The notes beneath the pieces were generated by a model that worked only from the letters and a program-made list of their open reading frames with translations, did not search any database and was not told the DNA's origin. A program made the position numbers and the translations under genes. From a bacterium (lineage in GTDB: Bacteria > Chlamydiota > Chlamydiia > Chlamydiales > SM23-39), in contig JAJZPH010000006.1 of assembly GCA_021811265.1 (NCBI GenBank), positions 1-60,169 on the forward strand: DNA of 60,169 nt, given 5' to 3'. Positions 1,965 through 34,904 of this stretch are shown here, piece after piece (the stretch's first letter is position 1; each line of letters starts with the position of its first letter).

Positions 1965-3809
1965 TTATTTTTTTTGCAATAAAGGGTCGAATGCGTTGGA
2001 AAAATAACTGGAGACTTCTTGAAAGGCCGGACTGCTTGTTTCGATCTCTTGATCTTCTAAATTTTTTACTGAGATGATTTCAAATTGCCGCGCTTGGAAG
2101 ATTTTTTTTTGTAGTTTTCCAATCAGACGTCCTTTGGCGTTGAGCAGAGAAAGGAAATAGGGAGCCTCTCCTCCATTTTGGTGGACGGTGAGGATGTAGG
2201 GCCAGGGGTGTGGGGCAAAAAGAGAAACTCCGTCAAAAAAGGAAGAAAAGGAGAGGTCCTGCGTAAGGAAGTGGAGCAGAGTTGGAAAGATGTCGATGTG
2301 CGATGTCATCTCTGTTTGGACTTTCAAATGGTGATGAGGAAAGTGATAAAAAATGGGAATGCGCGTTTGGGGATTATTGAGATGAGTCCCATGAAAAAGA
2401 GCCTCTTCTTCAAAAAACTCCTCTCCATGATCTGCTGTAAAGACAATGATCGATGAGTTGTAGAGATTTTTTTCTTTGAGATGCTCTAAAAAAGATCCAA
2501 AGAGAGAGTCGACGTAGCTGAGGGCATTGTAGTAGCGGTTTTTGACTGCTAGAAGAGAGGATCTGCTTTGAACCAAAAAAAGGTAAGGAATGGTTGCGGC
2601 CATTGGTGCAAAGCGTGTGGGGAAATTTTTAGGGCAGCTGTATTCTGAATGGGTAGAATCTAAAAAAATGATAAAGCAGTTTCCTTCTCTATTCTCTTCG
2701 AGAGAGATGGCATTTTTCAAAAGAGATACAGCAGTTCTATCGCGCTCACAGACCTCTATGCTTTGTTCGATGGCGCAATAGTGGTCGGCCAGTTCATGTC
2801 CTTTTCCAAAAATGGATGTGTCCATGAGAAAATATTCGAGTTCCGCAGAAGAAAAGAGGTGAATTTTGTACCCCAGCTGCTTTAACAGAGCAAGGGGCAG
2901 GCTTCCGTTTTGCTCTCTATATTCTCTCCAGTAGAAGGGAAAGATGGAATGAAAAATCGAAAACCAGGAGATCGGAGAGAAATTCGCAGAAGAGTAGGTC
3001 AGAGGAAGGGCGAGATTCTCTTTTTGAAAGGAAAAAAGGGATGGCGCTGTCTTTGCATCGATGGCATCTTTGCGCAAAGACTCCACAATGAAAAGGTAGA
3101 TGTTGGGAAGAGGAGTTGTTTGTTTTTTATAGTGGGGAAGTAATTTGTGGCATTCGATGGGTTTGAGAGATGAGGAAAAAGAGATTGAGGCGAGAGGATG
3201 TGGAGAAAAAAGATTTGTGCCCCAAGGTAGTCGATGTTGATAGCGATTGTGAAAAGAGGGCAAGAGCGTTGCTGTGATTGCAAGGTCGAAAAAGAGAAGA
3301 AATGAGAAAAAAACTCCCGCAAGTTTGCACACGAGAGAAAAAGAAAGATGGAAAGGTCTTTTTTGCGTAAATCTTTTGGTGAATCTCTCGACCCAAAGAG
3401 CAATAAAAGGCAAAGAGAAAAGAGCTGTTGCAATGAGTAGAAGAATGGGGGTGTTGATATTGGCGGCGCGAAGAGAGAGGAACAGTTTTCCTACCCCCTG
3501 ACCCAAAAAAATGTTGATGCCATGTGAAAGAGGCGCATCCATCAGGGAAAGAAGAAAAAAATCGACGATATAGACCAAAGGCAGAAAGAAGAGCAGAACT
3601 ACCCAGGCCTTGTAGAAAAAAGAGCATTTCTTCTCGATCCAGAAGGTTATTGTGATCAAGACAAGGACGCTGATCATTGTTTGACAAAGGGATTCTCCAA
3701 GAAAGAAAAAACCTCCTTTCGAAAACGGAAGAGAAAAAATTTGAAGAAAAAAGAGCAGAAAAAAAAGAAAACCAAAATAGAGATAGTTAAAAGAAAATTT
3801 TGTCGACAT
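1965..3809 (-). CDS. Inner-membrane sulfatase-like/alkaline-phosphatase superfamily protein (YejM/PbgA/LtaS-like)
   Basis: About 5 N-terminal TM helices, then PNIYLFIVESLR, FLDSTH.EY, RYYNAL.YVD, IVFTADHGEEF, HIDIFPTLL; start placed at MSTKF (3809). Confidence 0.8.
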   Translation of the reverse strand: MSTKFSFNYLYFGFLFFLLFFLQIFSLPFSKGGFFFLGESLCQTMISVLVLITITFWIEKKCSFFYKAWVVLLFFLPLVYIVDFFLLSLMDAPLSHGINIFLGQGVGKLFLSLRAANINTPILLLIATALFSLPFIALWVERFTKRFTQKRPFHLSFSLVCKLAGVFFSFLLFFDLAITATLLPSFHNRYQHRLPWGTNLFSPHPLASISFSSSLKPIECHKLLPHYKKQTTPLPNIYLFIVESLRKDAIDAKTAPSLFSFQKENLALPLTYSSANFSPISWFSIFHSIFPFYWREYREQNGSLPLALLKQLGYKIHLFSSAELEYFLMDTSIFGKGHELADHYCAIEQSIEVCERDRTAVSLLKNAISLEENREGNCFIIFLDSTHSEYSCPKNFPTRFAPMAATIPYLFLVQSRSSLLAVKNRYYNALSYVDSLFGSFLEHLKEKNLYNSSIIVFTADHGEEFFEEEALFHGTHLNNPQTRIPIFYHFPHHHLKVQTEMTSHIDIFPTLLHFLTQDLSFSSFFDGVSLFAPHPWPYILTVHQNGGEAPYFLSLLNAKGRLIGKLQKKIFQARQFEIISVKNLEDQEIETSSPAFQEVSSYFSNAFDPLLQKK

Positions 3810-4008
3810 GTTGGAGAGTGTAGCATTTTTCTTGTTTTTCTCAAGATTTGCAACTATCCTCTTTGTCGGATAGGTTTTTTCTTCGATTTGATAAGGTTTA
3901 GGGCCGGAGCGTGTAGAAATGAACAGGTATCGCAGGATTTTATGGCAGTTGCTTGCAATCTCTTTTGGAGGCAATAAACTGCAGCATTTGTGTTTGGTTA
4001 TTCATCTG

Positions 4009-5682
4009 TTGAAACATCGATGGTCTATGCACAAAGAACTTGGAAAATCGTTTTTTGAAGATACGCGAAAATCCTCGCGGTTGGAAGATCGTAAACTACC
4101 CAATATTAATGAAATATGGGATAGTTTACGATCTTCCCTCCCCGAGCTTTTGGCATGCTTCAGAAACCGATTTTCCAAGTTCTTTGTGTGTAGACGATTG
4201 CACTATGTTTTTCTTTCCCTTTTGATCGTTCCTTCTTTTTTATGCCCAAAGAACTTGGAAAATCGGTTTCTGAAGCACGCCAAAAACTCGGAGTTAAAAG
4301 ATTTTTTCGTAGCTTCAAAAACCGATTTCCCAAGTTCGTTGGGAATACATGCCGAGAGTGAAATTCTTCCTGTATTGATTTTAGGCGGAGGCATGGGAGG
4401 GCTTACTTCTGCCCTATATTTGGGAAGAGGAGGGATCGAAGCTACGGTCATTGAGGGCAAGAGCGCGGGAGGTGCTCTTACCAGTGCGCATTTGGTGGAG
4501 AACTGGCCCGGAGAAAAGAGCATTTCAGGTAGTGCTCTTATAGAAAAAATAAGAGAGCAAGCTGCAAGCTATGGCGCGCGCTTCTTGACGGAAGAGGTGG
4601 TAGAGGTCGATGTGTCCAAAGCTCCCTTTAAAGTGGTGACGAAAGGAGTTTTGGATCAAAAAACGCACGAGAGAAAAGCTTTTTCTTTGATCATCGCCAT
4701 GGGGTCGACTCCCAAAATGCTTTCCATTCCCGGCGAAAGAGAGTATGGGGGAAAAGGGGTCTCTTTTTGTGCAGCATGCGATGGAGCTTTTTATCGAGGA
4801 AAAAAGGTGGTTGTGATTGGAAGCGGCGACGTAGCAATTGGAGATGCGGAGTATCTTTCTCATTTGTGTGAAAAAGTCACTTGCATTGTAAGGAAAGGCT
4901 CTTTGAGGGCAAAAGAGATCAAGCGAAAAGAGGCTCTTGCCAAGAAAAAAAATGTAGAGGTCTATTTTAATACTCAAGTTGTATCCATCGAGGGCAATGG
5001 CCAAAACGTGACCCATATTGTGGTGCAAAATGCTGAAGGGAAAAAAACAAAGCTGGTCACAAATGGCGTTTTTATTGCGATTGGGCACACTCCTAACACA
5101 GAACTTTTTCAAGGGAAGTTAGATCTTAGTGAAGAGGGATATATCCTTCTCAAACATGGGCAAGAAACTTCCCATCCTGGTGTTTTTGCCGTTGGAGAAA
5201 TCGCCGACCCACAGTTTCAGCAAGCAATTACCGCAGCAGCAGAGGGAGCAAGAGCTGCTCTGCAAGCAGAAGCATATTGCTCTTCTGCTCTTTCGGCATC
5301 TTCTGCAAAGGTGCAACTGGCTGAAAAAAAGAGCTCCTATCAGATGGTGGAGATTACATCCACAGAGCAGTTTCGCAAAGAACTCAAAGAGTTTCCCGGA
5401 TACGTTCTTGTGGATTTTTATGCTACCTGGTGTGCGCCCTGCCAGCGTCTTTCCTTTCTTCTCGATCAAAAAATCAAAAACTCCCAAGAAAAAATTAAGG
5501 TGCTGAAAGTCAATGTTGAGCAGCATCTGTTTCTTGCAGAGAAGTATGATGTCCGGCAAATGCCTACACTTCTTATTTTTGATCCCGATAAAAACCTTGT
5601 GGAAAGAAAAACAGGCCTTTTTGAAATTTTAGACAGCCTCTCCTTTCTGGAAAAAGAAGGAGGCAGTCAAAAGGTTAAATAA
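4009..5682 (+). CDS. trxB: Thioredoxin reductase fused to C-terminal thioredoxin; N-terminal region carries in-frame repeat insertions (start uncertain: 4009, 4027 or 4186)
   Basis: GGGMGGL FAD motif, VENWPG, GVSFCAACDG active site, GSGDVA, TSHPGVFAVG, QAITAA; C-terminal VDFYATWCAPC thioredoxin domain. Confidence 0.9.
   Translation: MKHRWSMHKELGKSFFEDTRKSSRLEDRKLPNINEIWDSLRSSLPELLACFRNRFSKFFVCRRLHYVFLSLLIVPSFLCPKNLENRFLKHAKNSELKDFFVASKTDFPSSLGIHAESEILPVLILGGGMGGLTSALYLGRGGIEATVIEGKSAGGALTSAHLVENWPGEKSISGSALIEKIREQAASYGARFLTEEVVEVDVSKAPFKVVTKGVLDQKTHERKAFSLIIAMGSTPKMLSIPGEREYGGKGVSFCAACDGAFYRGKKVVVIGSGDVAIGDAEYLSHLCEKVTCIVRKGSLRAKEIKRKEALAKKKNVEVYFNTQVVSIEGNGQNVTHIVVQNAEGKKTKLVTNGVFIAIGHTPNTELFQGKLDLSEEGYILLKHGQETSHPGVFAVGEIADPQFQQAITAAAEGARAALQAEAYCSSALSASSAKVQLAEKKSSYQMVEITSTEQFRKELKEFPGYVLVDFYATWCAPCQRLSFLLDQKIKNSQEKIKVLKVNVEQHLFLAEKYDVRQMPTLLIFDPDKNLVERKTGLFEILDSLSFLEKEGGSQKVK
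4026..4192. mobile_element. Family A palindromic element, long 167 bp copy with internal hairpin
   Basis: Arms TATGCACAAAGAACTTGGAAAATCG / CGATTTTCCAAGTTCTTTGTGTGTA; internal IR GAAGATCGTAAACTA...TAGTTTACGATCTTC. Confidence 0.85.
4241..4347. mobile_element. Family A palindromic element, 107 bp copy inserted in frame
   Basis: Arms TATGCCCAAAGAACTTGGAAAATCGGTTT / AAACCGATTTCCCAAGTTCGTTGGGAATA; core GAAGCACGCCAAAAACTCGG shared with the 1809 copy. Confidence 0.85.
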
Positions 5683-6755: not shown

Positions 6756-7697
6756 ATGTTAAGAGGAGTAGTAAGTTCTGCAGAAGGTTCGGATAAAAGC
6801 CGTGCAATAGGTACAGGGGCAACAAATGTGAGTGTAACCAGTAGAATTGTAGGGATTTTCGGAGTAACCATTGCATCTTATGTCGGCGTTTTTTATCTTT
6901 TACCGCGCGCTCTTTCTTACCTTTCTTCTTCCTCTCTTTTTTCGCAAAAGGCTGTTGTTGGTTTTGCGGGAGTTTTATCTATTTTTTGTAGTGGAAAATT
7001 TATCTACGACCCTTCGGTAGTAAATTTTTTAAGCGTTGCTCTTGCTACTACTGTTTGTGTCGGATCTTTCTTTGTACACCCGATTCCTATTTGTATTTTG
7101 AGCTGTTTGATGATTGCTTTTGAAGAATTACAAGATTTTTCCTCTGAAGAGAAAGGAATACCAAGACGTCTTATTAGTGTTTTTAAAACGCTACTTGCTA
7201 TTGGCGTTCTTTGTTTTAATTCAGTAGAGGTTTTTGCTTTGTTTTCTTTGATGTTGGGCTTGGACGTTCTTGTCGGAAGCAAGAAAAAAGGTGAAAAAAC
7301 AACTTCAATAGAAGGGCGGCTTGGTATCGAAGGGTTAATATTTTTGGCCATGCTGTTTTTTTATTTCGGCAGTAGTTCTTCTTCCGGTGCGCAACCACGC
7401 GAGTGGTTGCAACGGTTGATGAATAAATTGCACGTTTCGGATTTGTCTCAATATGCATGGTTCCAACAGATGCAGAACTTTTTTAAAGCCAACTTACCTT
7501 TGATGAATAAATTGCATGTTTCGGATTTGTCTCAGTATGCATGGTTCCAACAGATGCAGAACTTTTTTAAAGTCAACTTGCCTTCCTTCCAGATCGACGA
7601 GTGGATGCCATTGTTGCAAAGCTTTTTTAATGGTAACCTATCTTCTCTACATCCAAGTGAGTGGATTGGGCAATTAAAAACCCTTTTGCATGTATAG
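6756..7697 (+). CDS. Hypothetical multi-pass membrane protein with C-terminal 28-aa tandem repeat
   Basis: 313 aa; several hydrophobic segments; LMNKLHVSDLSQYAWFQQMQNFFKxNLP twice. Confidence 0.7.
   Translation: MLRGVVSSAEGSDKSRAIGTGATNVSVTSRIVGIFGVTIASYVGVFYLLPRALSYLSSSSLFSQKAVVGFAGVLSIFCSGKFIYDPSVVNFLSVALATTVCVGSFFVHPIPICILSCLMIAFEELQDFSSEEKGIPRRLISVFKTLLAIGVLCFNSVEVFALFSLMLGLDVLVGSKKKGEKTTSIEGRLGIEGLIFLAMLFFYFGSSSSSGAQPREWLQRLMNKLHVSDLSQYAWFQQMQNFFKANLPLMNKLHVSDLSQYAWFQQMQNFFKVNLPSFQIDEWMPLLQSFFNGNLSSLHPSEWIGQLKTLLHV
7416..7583 (+). repeat. 84-bp tandem duplication (2 copies) within CDS
   Basis: Units start at 7416 and 7500; few substitutions, mostly synonymous. Confidence 0.9.
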
Positions 7698-7733: not shown

Positions 7734-9623
7734 TTAGAGGACAGAGGGAAAAATTTTTTGAAAGGCTCTTTGAAATCTTTTGTCTACTTCCTTTTTTATC
7801 TCTTTTCTCGACGAGAGATCGATCGCATCTTTACGATCGGAAAGAAGAAGAAATTCTAACTTGGCCGGTTCGAATAGGGCATTTTGTGATTGGAAGCGCA
7901 CGAGAAGTTTTTTTTCTCCATCATGAAGAAAGAATTCGTAAGGAGGTCTGCTCCCATTGAATCTGGCAGACAGCGCAAACTGCTGTTTATTGGGATCAAA
8001 GATGGATTGTCCGTCAAACTGATTGTGGGTAGGGAGTATTTTAAAAAGATAGTGGAAGAGAGTGGGCAGAATATCGACGTGAGAAATGAGCCTTTGATTC
8101 TGCAGAGGTATCGCATTTTTTCGCGTATTTCCCAGTTTGAAATACAAAGGAACGTTTGTTTGTTCATGAGAAAGGACAGAGGCATGGAAGAGATGTCCAT
8201 GTTCGAAAAACTCTTCTCCATGATCTGCAGTGACAATAATGACGGCGTTTTCGTAGAGTTTTTGCTCTTTTAGCGTTTTGATAAATTCTCCAAAAAGATC
8301 GTCGATCCAGTGGATTGCATTGCGATAGCGATTTTTGATGCTTTCCAGGCGAACATTTGATGGACAAGGAGAAAAGCAGGACAACCTGCCCGACAGCGGG
8401 AGAAAGAGAGATCGTGTATCGGGCCAGCTGTAGGGGAAGTGGGAAGAGTCGAGGAAGGTGATGAAGCAGTTTTTTTCCCTGTTTTCGCTCTGTTTTACGT
8501 CATTGCACAAGGATTGCATGGCATCTCGGTCGCATTGACACAAAGGCGAGGAAGGTAAGTGGGAAAAAAAGTGGGGAGAGTGAATCAGAGAGGTATCTTT
8601 TCCAAAAAGAAGCTCTTTCATGCCGTAAAAAGCAAGTTCGGCAGCGGAGTAGAGATGAGTATGATAGCCTGTTTGTTGTAAAAGATAGGGAAAAGACCTT
8701 TGAGAGCCCAGGACATCTTTTTTGTATTTTTTCCAATAAAAAGGATATTTTCCATAAAGAATGGAAAACCATGAAAGGTGGGTAGAGTTGGAGCCCGAAA
8801 GCGCCAGGTCAAAGGATAGCTCTTCTTTCTTGAAAAGAAAGCGCTTGGGAGTATTTTCTTCGGTAATAAAATCTTCTCTCAAGCTTTCGATGATGAAGAG
8901 ATAGACATTGGCTTTTTCTTTCAACAGTGGATACGAAGAGGAAGAAAAGTCTGAGCGTAAGCATCCCTTGAAGGAAAGCCTCCAAGATGTGGGTTGAAAA
9001 ATGGTGGTTTTCCAAGGAAGAGATTTTTGCATGGGCTGGAAGAGGTTAGCATGAATGGTCCATGCATGTGCAGTGTTCCATAAGAGAAGGGAAAGTGGCA
9101 GCAGGAGAAGGAGGAGAAAAAATGATTGGTGCGCAATGAGTAGCGGCTTTTTGTCTGCTAAAAAAGCACATCCTTTGAAAAAAAGTATGCCAAGGAGCGG
9201 CAGAGCAAAAATACACCCACCAATGAGAAGCCAGGTAGTAAGGGAGATATTTGCGGCTTTGAGAAGTTCTAGAAAAGAAGAAAATGTTTCAAAGCGTATA
9301 AAATTAATTCCTTCAAAAATGCTCAAATCCATCATTCGGGTCAAAAAAAAGTCGACGATTTGTGTGGTCAAAAGAAGAACCAAAACCCCTAGATAGGTAA
9401 AGAAGAGCGCGCGGGGTAGGTGCTTTTCAAAAAAATGGGTAAGATAAACTATGCAGCTGATTTCGGTAAGCGATTGGAGTAGTGCATTGATCAGGAAAAA
9501 GGCTTTTGTTTCGCAAAAGGGATGGTCGACAAGAAGGATATTAACGGAGCTGGAAACAAGAAGAAAAAGAAAAACAGGAGCAAAAAAAAGATAGTTGATT
9601 GAAATCTTGTACTTCAGATTCAT
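7734..9623 (-). CDS. Inner-membrane sulfatase-like protein (paralog of 1965-3809)
   Basis: TM region, then NVYLFIIESLRED, FLDSSHFPY, RYRNAI.WID, IVTADHGEEF, SHVDILPTL; start MNLKY at 9623 with GGAG upstream. Confidence 0.8.
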   Translation of the reverse strand: MNLKYKISINYLFFAPVFLFLLVSSSVNILLVDHPFCETKAFFLINALLQSLTEISCIVYLTHFFEKHLPRALFFTYLGVLVLLLTTQIVDFFLTRMMDLSIFEGINFIRFETFSSFLELLKAANISLTTWLLIGGCIFALPLLGILFFKGCAFLADKKPLLIAHQSFFLLLLLLPLSLLLWNTAHAWTIHANLFQPMQKSLPWKTTIFQPTSWRLSFKGCLRSDFSSSSYPLLKEKANVYLFIIESLREDFITEENTPKRFLFKKEELSFDLALSGSNSTHLSWFSILYGKYPFYWKKYKKDVLGSQRSFPYLLQQTGYHTHLYSAAELAFYGMKELLFGKDTSLIHSPHFFSHLPSSPLCQCDRDAMQSLCNDVKQSENREKNCFITFLDSSHFPYSWPDTRSLFLPLSGRLSCFSPCPSNVRLESIKNRYRNAIHWIDDLFGEFIKTLKEQKLYENAVIIVTADHGEEFFEHGHLFHASVLSHEQTNVPLYFKLGNTRKNAIPLQNQRLISHVDILPTLFHYLFKILPTHNQFDGQSIFDPNKQQFALSARFNGSRPPYEFFLHDGEKKLLVRFQSQNALFEPAKLEFLLLSDRKDAIDLSSRKEIKKEVDKRFQRAFQKIFPSVL

Positions 9624-9656
9624 GAAAAAGCTCCGAACACAGCCCTCTTTTTTCTT

Positions 9657-9728
9657 TATACACAAAGAAGTTGGAAAATCAGTTTTTGGCGTGCTCCAGA
9701 AACCGATTTTCCAACTTCTTTGTGTATA
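9657..9728. mobile_element. Family A palindromic element, 72 bp copy
   Basis: TATACACAAAGAAGTTGGAAAATC...GATTTTCCAACTTCTTTGTGTATA; core in the opposite orientation to the 12423 copy. Confidence 0.85.
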
Positions 9729-12422: not shown

Positions 12423-12494
12423 TATACGCAAAGAACTTGGAAAATCGGCTTCTGGAGCACGCCAAAAACCGATTTTCCAAGTTCTTTGTGTATA
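12423..12494. mobile_element. Family A palindromic element, 72 bp copy
   Basis: TATACGCAAAGAACTTGGAAAATCGG...CCGATTTTCCAAGTTCTTTGTGTATA. Confidence 0.85.
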
Positions 12495-34700: not shown

Positions 34701-34904
34701 TATACTCAAAGAGCTTGGAAAATCAGTTTCTGGAGCGAAAGTCCTCGTGGTCGAAAGATAGTAATCTACCCATATTTTGTTAACACTGGGCAGCTTGCGA
34801 TCGTTGTGCATGCGCGAAAATTTGGATATCGTAAGTTATACAACGTTAACGACGTAGAGACAGCTTACGATGATTATTGAAAAGAAATCTCATTTTCCAG
34901 TATA
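34701..34904. mobile_element. Degenerate long family A element with two internal hairpin modules
   Basis: Left arm TATACTCAAAGAGCTTGGAAAATC; decayed GATCGTAA..TTACGAT-type modules; truncated right arm ATTTTCCA-GTATA. Confidence 0.65.

Follow-up and report, generated by a model that had tools for sequence, protein, structure and literature searches.

The TrxB-Trx gene and its divided leader

The window analysed here is a whole contig of 60,169 nucleotides (C47) from a 51-contig genome (G000) of 1,504,286 bp and 42.7% G+C, and the subject of this study is the open reading frame (ORF) at positions 3919-5682 (plus strand; 587 codons counted from the ATG at 3919), in whose 5' part two copies of a miniature inverted-repeat transposable element (MITE) are inserted. 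The product is a fusion of thioredoxin reductase and thioredoxin (TrxB-Trx), with a CxxC motif in the Pyr_redox_2 domain (residues 152-443, 1.3e-44 in Pfam) and a WCxPC motif in the Thioredoxin domain that follows (residues 478-562, 2.7e-19); the motifs found are CAAC, WCAPC, GGGMGG and GSGDVA. The enzyme body begins at about position 4348. The nearest named relatives of the gene belong to metagenome-assembled genomes labelled Chlamydiae, Parachlamydiales or Chlamydiota, and a canonical TrxB without a leader is also present in this genome (C20:28938-29852).

The enzyme body appears to be constrained and the gene to be still functional, as judged from its alignment. Of the 61 columns that are invariant in 14 other aligned orthologs, 57 are retained, where the other taxa lose 0-9, and the four changes (F to V, D to S and twice D to E) are conservative. 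The terminal branch of this TrxB-Trx in the tree is 0.59, the same as the median end branch.

Upstream of the enzyme body, three unique pieces alternate with the two elements. The segment 4009-4025 (TTG-AAA-CAT-CGA-TGG-TC), a remnant of the ancestral N-terminus that reads (M)KHRWS, is homologous to ATG-CGC-TCA-CAT-CGC-TGG of the same-genus genome. It is followed by element 1, a full-length copy of 163 bp on the plus strand (4028-4190; 93.9% identical to the family consensus) between TA target-site duplications at 4026-4027 and 4191-4192. The spacer at 4192-4242 encodes RRLHYVFLSLLIVPSFL, the positively charged end of the n-region and the hydrophobic core of the ancestral leader, and its last two bases are the left TA (4241-4242) of element 2. 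This second copy is 103 bp long, lies on the minus strand (4243-4345) and is of a subfamily marked by an internal deletion of 60 bp and by the end variant CCCAAAG; its right TA is at 4346-4347. The third unique piece, 4348-4395, encodes HAESEILPVLILGGGM, in which the ancestral leader ends (L-H-A / E) and the FAD fold begins with its first strand and glycine motif.

In the frame of the ORF, element 1 would be read in its frame +1 as 55 residues (MHKELGKS...SKFFVC), and it holds an ATG at its left edge (4027-4029) and a GTG in its right end (4186). Element 2 would be read in its frame -2 as 35 residues (CPKNLENRFLKHAKNSELKDFFVASKTDFPSSLGI), with an in-frame TTG at 4339. Both predicted peptides are hydrophilic (Kyte-Doolittle means of -0.61 and -0.51), and the 55 residues of element 1 include 11 Lys and Arg and 8 Asp and Glu. 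Each copy is palindromic, with arms at 4020-4060 and 4158-4198 in element 1 (41 nt, 88% complementary) and at 4241-4276 and 4312-4347 in element 2 (89%). The copies stand in opposite orientations (plus and minus in nhmmer), and 4131-4186 is complementary to 4247-4302 over 56 nt at 88%. An earlier note on this DNA had described these insertions as stop-free, of opposite orientation and a multiple of three in length, and all its coordinates and numbers hold: with one TA each, the elements measure 165 bp and 105 bp, and both are free of stops in the frame of ORF 3919-5682. Excision of both, each with one TA, leaves KHRWS / RRLHYVFLSLLIVPSFL / HAESE.

The ancestral leader in orthologs

A search with the enzyme body matched 39 of 40 relatives; 15 genomes gave one match across the fused protein and 3 more gave two matches in one open frame. 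The upstream frame was read for the 19 best loci, of which one ends at a contig edge. In all of the 18 readable orthologs, the GGGxG motif is directly preceded by a short leader that starts basic and contains a hydrophobic stretch. The ortholog of the sister species, from the same genus, reads MRSHRWIFFLFFLSFSSFSFAEKEVLPVVVLGGG with a stop codon directly before the ATG, and its leader, MRSHRWIFFLFFLSFSSFSFAEKE, is uninterrupted. It shares H-R-W and ...A-E-x-E-(I/V)-L-P-V with the window gene, and the divergent sulfatase-like neighbour gene of TrxB-Trx is kept in the sister genome. The unique pieces of the window gene, (M)KHRWS, RRLHYVFLSLLIVPSFL and HAESEILPVLILGGG, follow each other in this order and are collinear with the ortholog leader. 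Comparison with orthologs that have no insert thus bears out the leader that the earlier note had rebuilt by excision.

That note had placed one of the two elements within a sequence resembling a signal peptide. The placement stands and can be extended, as the alignment confirms that both elements split the ancestral leader. Element 1 is located inside the basic n-region, at the TA of TCT-AGA; element 2, which entered at the TA of TTA, separates the hydrophobic core from the L-H-A cleavage-type motif. The highest 11-residue Kyte-Doolittle mean of the window leader is 2.43, at VFLSLLIVPSF. Among 14 ortholog leaders scored, 12 have a hydropathy of at least 2.06 over 11 residues, and the other two were shortened by the automatic choice of ATG. 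Ortholog leaders end, for example, in ...FSFA/EK, ...CFA/DV and ...LFA/EP. By composition, the ancestral leader looks like a signal peptide of the Sec type, putatively of the kind cut by signal peptidase I (SPase I).

The leader-bearing TrxB-Trx fusion is common to all 18 readable relatives (L002-L019), beside the canonical leaderless TrxB in this genome (G000). An exported or anchored flavoenzyme that requires NADPH is unexpected outside the cytoplasm, and the conserved leader-bearing fusion itself deserves attention; a search of the literature on periplasmic TrxB-Trx in chlamydiae found nothing relevant.

A family of TA-duplicating elements

The two insertions are members of a large repeat family. 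Its 17-nt terminal motif, with up to 3 mismatches allowed, was counted 12 times in the window, where 0.65 would be expected (0 of 100 shuffles reached 12), and 157 times in the genome. An nhmmer profile built from 18 full-length copies gave 168 matches, which merge into 82 loci, and both ends are recognisable at 41 of these. TA flanks are present on both sides of 38 of the 41 complete copies, and in the remaining 3 one flank deviates by a single base. The consensus is 163 bp long with inverted ends TACACAAAGAACTTGGAAAATCG and terminal inverted repeats of 23-35 nt. Internally deleted forms of 68-158 bp also occur, and the element has room for no ORF beyond its own open frames. Including one TA, the complete copies measure 165 bp (15, the modal size), 105 bp (2), 117 bp (1) or other sizes (23), and 18 of the 41 are multiples of three. 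The end-motif rule missed some short copies, such as 1811-1894 and 9659-9726, which are non-coding and not multiples of three. The flanks of the 82 loci differ, and the orthologous sites in the sister genome are empty for the TrxB-Trx gene and for genes on contigs C27 and C5; this family has moved in the past.

Elsewhere in the window, an 84-bp intergenic copy with TA on both sides is found at 1811-1894 (86 bp including one TA), a 68-bp copy at 9659-9726 (70 bp) within the 5' leader of the gene at 7734-9625 (minus strand), 33 nt upstream of its likely ATG, and a further 68-bp intergenic copy at 12425-12492 (70 bp). The earlier note had given these lengths as 86, 70 and 70 bp, which agrees with the present values, and all three copies lie outside coding sequence. 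Two partial copies on the plus strand complete the set: one at 34703-34823 retains the left end and inner core and lacks the right end, and one at 60131-60169 is ended by the contig edge. The repeats break the assembly, and several copies stand at contig ends.

The TA duplication, the inverted ends and the internally deleted derivatives together identify the family, by its sequence features, as a MITE of the IS630/Tc1-mariner type. The genome contains two DDE_3 transposase genes. A TA-flanked IS630-type insertion sequence (IS) of 1205 bp at C29:2134-3338 (DDE_3 at 113.6 bits) has an intact-looking transposase frame, open over 386 codons; its right end, in register, shares 24 of 35 positions with the MITE end, and its left end shares 15-17 of 35 (background mean, 13.2). 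The IS630-type element on C16 has 45-nt ends that are unrelated to the MITE, and its transposase is split into two frames. Mobilisation in trans by a resident IS630-type enzyme is plausible, and the C29 element is a possible source of the family.

A search of the complete same-genus genome gave no match to the element. Among 60 relatives searched, it was matched in only 2 genomes of other genera, and there in the inner core only (76-83% identity), with different ends. These related elements (L217 and L220 of G050, L218 of G049) share the inner core GATCGTAAGCTACCCAATATT... and look like members of a MITE superfamily with a conserved core, while the family described here appears to be specific to this lineage. 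In the sister genera, 160 bp are added with one open frame, or the element is 157 bp long with none. One MITE is nested in another at a TA in L220. At the gathering score, Rfam matched only a tRNA elsewhere in the window and left the element unmatched. At E-values of up to 1, only microRNA-precursor hairpin models of plants and animals and similar models appeared, far below threshold (for example 49.5 bits against a cut-off of 211 bits), which are read as generic matches to long hairpins.

A unit of about 1.35 kb between two element ends on C9 was considered as an autonomous IS and rejected. It consists of an MFS transporter gene (C9:23219-24565) bracketed by two partial copies in inverted orientation, an arrangement that merely resembles a composite unit.

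In-frame copies in other genes

Every complete copy was excised in silico, long frames spanning the junction were sought, and the candidates were compared with orthologs. The copy at C27:1900-2062 (165 bp including TA) lies between the conserved segments GGFRVGK...KEESM and EPSNEILSILHQPFVYLDQGCQ. Upstream of the insert, its host protein carries an N-terminal membrane helix and the family-wide motif GGFRxGK; QPFxYLDQGCQxYVF follows downstream. The sister ortholog (61% identical) reads ...GGFRMGKIFLEKDLQLPAK/EPSSELLALLDQPFFYLDQGCQ with no insert, and the 55 residues are absent from 10 further homologs as well. The recorded gene-caller product of 349 aa, found on 4 contigs, includes the insert. 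On this comparison, the copy is unambiguously in frame within coding sequence, and it independently supports the behaviour that the earlier note had likened to that of Rickettsia palindromic elements (RPE).

The only other 103-bp copy of the genome (C18:18697-18799) has the 60-bp deletion and the end variant in common with element 2. MMKKI and GIRLLLFVHCLLISTSLSA of a DUF6829 protein flank it, and one ortholog of this protein starts MHKTKKIGLYLLVG... The copy is probably in coding sequence and also in a signal peptide; alternatively, the TTG in the element end would serve as the start. A 163-bp copy at C5:3359-3521 stands directly upstream of a pseudopilin-like gene (FFSLFEILIV; C5:2854-3594, L026 855-1595). 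The GTG in the end of this copy is the only start that fits MILFRKIAFFSLMEIL of the sister ortholog, with no other between the element and FFSLFEIL, and the MITE may thus have donated a start codon to the gene. As a coding copy C5 was dropped, because the end of the preceding gene runs into the upstream 'MGKSK...' frame and the element GTG fits the ortholog start. Six other junction-spanning frames (C1:43935, C20, C8, C7:15505, C2 and C30) were not counted, being non-protein-like in a judgement made by eye only.

Four copies are therefore placed in coding sequence through their orthologs, two in the TrxB-Trx gene and one each on C27 and C18. All four are located in N-terminal leaders or linkers and none in folded domains; the majority of the other copies lie between genes or in 5' leaders. 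The coding copies are stop-free and multiples of three without exception (4/4), against 14/37 of the other complete copies (one-sided Fisher p = 0.03). Averaged over copies, an insertion read in a random frame would be both in frame and open with a probability of 0.16. The earlier note had contrasted coding copies, whose length is a multiple of three, with intergenic copies, whose length is not. Genome-wide, this contrast is confounded by the canonical length of 165 bp and by the 14 other copies that are also multiples of three.

The open frames are in part a property of the consensus. Together with its TA flanks it is stop-free in 3 of 6 frames, and at least three open frames arose in 7 of 20,000 composition-matched and 17 of 20,000 palindrome-preserving shuffles (P about 0.0004-0.0009). 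Among the 15 copies of exactly 163 bp, intergenic copies included, frame -2 is open in 15, +1 in 14, +2 in 8 and -1 in 3. The frames used are +1 in element 1, -2 in element 2 and +2 in the C27 and C18 copies, all of which are open in the consensus. Given the standard size of 165 bp and the stop-poor consensus, a full-length copy in a gene therefore always keeps the frame and is open about 44% of the time. This stop-poor design in multiples of three is absent from the related elements of the sister genera; it could be an adaptation or an accident. A protein database search with the element 1 peptide returned only this organism's own proteins (2), and one with the C27 insert peptide only this organism's own protein (1); for longer proteins, the lack of further matches is weak evidence.

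Three further observations concern these genes. First, the C27 locus (C27:1739-3684, L025 539-2484) contains tandem paralogs with a membrane helix, GGFRxGK and a domain of about 240 residues without a Pfam match, an architecture that is expanded in relatives to up to 12 matches in one genome. Second, a copy at C42:44563-44724 truncates the frame of an AAA-type ATPase, of which the last 26 codons are lost. Third, this copy and those at C43:39916-40055 and C35:9001-9037 stand at the 3' ends of frames, whose C-termini they would replace or extend; the frames on C43 and C35 are putative.

Start codons and translation of the inserts

Which start codon is used, whether the inserts are translated and what becomes of the leader are matters of inference here. 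The best in-frame start with a Shine-Dalgarno sequence upstream of both elements is the ATG at 3919, which follows GGAG (3906-3909) after 9 nt (3906-3921, plus strand; duplex of -7.0 kcal/mol). A duplex of -7 kcal/mol or lower accompanies 19% of the first ATGs of 669 long ORFs and 4.6% of internal control sites. Further in-frame candidates on the plus strand are the TTG at 4009, which is homologous to the ancestral start region; the ATG at 4027, on the edge of element 1, where the recorded product of 551 aa starts (3 contigs); and the GTG at 4186 in the right end of element 1, whose Shine-Dalgarno value of -0.2 kcal/mol amounts to no match. After element 2, only two in-frame starts precede the glycine motif, the TTG at 4339 within the right end of that element, which would give MGIHAESE..., and the TTG at 4375, and neither has a Shine-Dalgarno match (-0.2 and -2.4 kcal/mol). 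The element ends thus supply an in-frame GTG or TTG 2-3 codons before the junction (GTG 4186 and TTG 4339, and also the C5 and C18 copies). The codons at 4027, 4186 and 4339 are located in stems, and initiation there would therefore be disfavoured relative to 3919. The caveat of the earlier note, that element 1 is coding only if translation starts upstream of 4186, stands, and the TTG at 4339 adds another in-frame option.

The region 3880-4008, about 100 nt upstream of the ancestral start, has no counterpart in the sister genome. It holds the GGAG-backed ATG 3919, and its frame, MNRYRRILWQLLAISFGG..., is slightly signal-like.

Taken together, it is probable that the leader is retained and that at least element 2 is translated, because the leader is universal in the orthologs and the enzyme is still constrained. 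As for the start itself, a codon upstream of element 1 (ATG 3919, TTG 4009 or ATG 4027) has about an even chance of being the one used; the GTG at 4186 in the end of element 1 is clearly less likely.

Several points weigh against a translated and retained leader. The predicted fold of the transcript from 3900 to 4400 reaches -201.6 kcal/mol (z = -11.3), and such strong hairpins would have to be unwound by ribosomes; moreover, translation could restart at the GTG and TTG codons of the element ends. In a by-eye comparison, the element 1 peptide has 8 amino acid changes relative to the consensus reading and thus gives no sign that its own sequence is constrained. In part, the in-frame open state comes with the family, and the frame argument is only modest for the TrxB-Trx gene alone: even as untranslated 5' leader, both copies would be open and in frame by chance with a probability of about 0.2 (1 in 5). 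The TrxB-Trx branch is 1.7 times that of the sister (0.59 against 0.34). Finally, an RNA run of the same metagenome study placed nothing on the gene, a result that is uninformative either way.

The alternative that survives best is nested within the favoured reading, and we regard it as possible rather than likely. Only element 2 would be coding; translation would begin at GTG 4186 with MCRRLHYVFLSLLIVPSFL..., and element 1 would be an upstream untranslated hairpin that donates the start. This codon is in frame and restores a textbook N-terminus, basic and then hydrophobic, and the GTG at the same element position could serve the pseudopilin-like gene on C5. Nevertheless, it has no Shine-Dalgarno match, it stands in the stem of the 41-nt, 88% complementary hairpin, and a scan of 3600-4500 revealed no sigma-70-like promoter on the plus strand. 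In addition, element 1 is open and in frame with the upstream starts, which costs this alternative a factor of about 0.44 if that state is unselected.

According to a second alternative, the leader has been destroyed and the enzyme is made in the cytoplasm from the TTG at 4339 or 4375, so that both elements would be structured 5' untranslated sequence, in frame and open only as a consequence of the fixed sizes and few stops of the family. In-frame TTG codons are available at both positions, the same option of a start in the element end exists at C5 and C18, and 53% of the first ATGs in the genome have no Shine-Dalgarno match of -4 kcal/mol or better. An open frame needs no selection when frames -2 and +1 are open in 15/15 and 14/15 of the 163-bp copies, and the leaderless canonical TrxB on C20 indicates that cytoplasmic TrxB chemistry is normal in this genome. 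On the other hand, all 18 readable orthologs keep the leader, so the function of this paralog appears to be tied to export or anchoring, and the body is still constrained. A start at 4375 leaves only M-I-L before the glycine motif, the TTG at 4339 is within a hairpin arm, and neither codon has a Shine-Dalgarno match. With the chance of about one in five for both copies to be open and in frame, and with the C27 copy showing that the family is carried within coding sequence, this explanation is improbable.

That the insertions have knocked out the gene, leaving an early pseudogene still to acquire stops and frameshifts, is very unlikely. The longer terminal branch (0.59 against 0.34 in the sister) and the reduced genome (1.5 Mb against 2.1 Mb) would fit such a history, but 57 of 61 invariant columns are retained with four conservative changes, within the range of 0-9 of the other taxa, the catalytic and cofactor motifs are all intact, and the frame of 587 codons has no stop. 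Element 1 is already about 6% away from the consensus, so damage has had time to accumulate. Mis-joining of repeats in the metagenome bin is the least credible explanation of all: short-read contigs of two public DNA metagenome runs (one study) do break at elements and several copies are at contig ends, but the three unique pieces are collinear with the ortholog leader, upstream synteny is kept, and the identical 551-aa protein across both inserts is recorded from 3 contigs, the longest of 137 kb. No contig in these two runs joins across an empty site, which is uninformative either way. The best match among closer relatives sought for filled or empty sites was 46% identical in metagenome contigs and 48% in genome contigs, a scan that may have omitted records near the window's own genome.

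A proposed history of the gene

On the reading favoured here, a non-autonomous TA-duplicating MITE, mobilised in trans, would have inserted twice at TA in the leader DNA of TrxB-Trx. The gain is exactly 55 codons for a full element with its TA and 35 for a copy of the 103-bp subfamily; with the stop-free frames of the family, the reading frame would have stayed intact after both insertions, and the gene would have survived under selection. The most likely start of translation is upstream of the hydrophobic core, with at least element 2 being read through. The peptide of element 1, if translated, would form a cytoplasmic N-terminal extension of 55 residues. The hydrophobic core, still preceded by arginines, would target the enzyme to or across the inner membrane. 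SPase I cuts close to the end of the hydrophobic core. The core is now 35 residues away from L-H-A, and the old cleavage site is therefore probably out of reach. The enzyme is probably held at the membrane by a signal anchor that stays uncleaved and a linker of 35 residues, rather than cleaved and periplasmic, as the order of core, insert and L-H-A suggests. The question raised by this locus is whether a 35-residue insert between core and cleavage site converts a secreted enzyme into an anchored one.

The places where insertions have been tolerated are the n- and c-regions of signal peptides and the linker behind a membrane anchor, and the insertions are cleanly dated by a sister species with empty sites. 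They also carry a warning for annotation, as gene callers pick start codons that lie within such elements or on their edge; in this case ATG 4027 was taken and the leader was missed. A wider idea, which is speculative and in our view rather unlikely, is that the MITE family has been shaped for life in genes. Its 55-codon insertion and two to three stop-free frames, unlike those of related elements, would favour persistence in export leaders and membrane-anchor linkers, and the family would tether secreted proteins, rewire the envelope proteome and donate GTG and TTG starts. If this were true, n-regions would be lengthened or cores uncoupled from their cleavage sites, and cleaved periplasmic proteins would become tethered ones.

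Comparison with known systems

TA-duplicating MITEs derived from IS630/Tc1-mariner elements are known in bacteria, among them Correia/NEMIS of Neisseria and RUP of pneumococcus. The present family resembles these in the TA duplication, the terminal inverted repeats, the sizes of 70-165 bp with internally deleted variants, the strong transcript hairpins and the mostly intergenic or 5' leader positions, and a DDE_3 transposase is present in the genome. Two aspects set it apart. First, its ends match those of the resident IS only distantly (24/35 and 15-17/35); second, its standard size with TA is a multiple of three with three frames open, which is not so in the related elements of the two sister genera.

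In behaviour the closest parallel is found in the RPE (Ogata et al. 2000, as cited in PMC10969869). Both are palindromic repeats of about 100-165 bp that occur in many copies in the reduced genome of an intracellular-type bacterium, and in both the family sequence has open frames and in-frame insertion into unrelated protein genes adds a family-specific peptide. They differ in the host phylum, which is Chlamydiota-like here, and in the clear TA duplications and terminal inverted repeats of 23-35 nt that tie the present element to IS630-type transposition. Another difference is that the coding copies here are located in N-terminal leaders or linkers, not in folded domains. A 2024 review of prokaryotic MITEs (PMC10969869) describes in-frame fusions by intragenic MITEs as 'not unusual' and RPE as the extreme case, with nearly half in ORFs, against 3-4 of 41 complete copies that are coding here. 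The element can be said to act like an RPE, a likeness drawn from behaviour, and by taxon it is not an RPE.

The same text lists intragenic ERIC, the Coxiella element QMITE1 and Anabaena's MITEb and MITEe with open frames and in-frame fusions to host genes (PMC10969869). These come from unrelated organisms, and no case of a copy in a signal peptide, or of two copies in the same leader, is described there; the terms 'signal peptide' and 'Chlamydia' have 0 occurrences in that text. A search of the literature on MITEs or palindromic elements in Chlamydiae found no such family, which is not proof of absence. The phenomenon of selfish palindromes in genes is already established, and it is the double insertion in one signal peptide and the stop-poor design in multiples of three that are notable here. 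In-frame carriage is best known from Rickettsia, and the same outcome appears to have arisen here independently, in a chlamydia-like lineage and from an identifiable TA-duplicating, IS630-like transposon.

A further repeat in the window

Apart from the element family, the ORF at 6756-7697 (313 aa) contains a direct internal duplication of about 27 residues, in which NKLHVSDLSQYAWFQQMQNFFK(A/V)NLP occurs twice.

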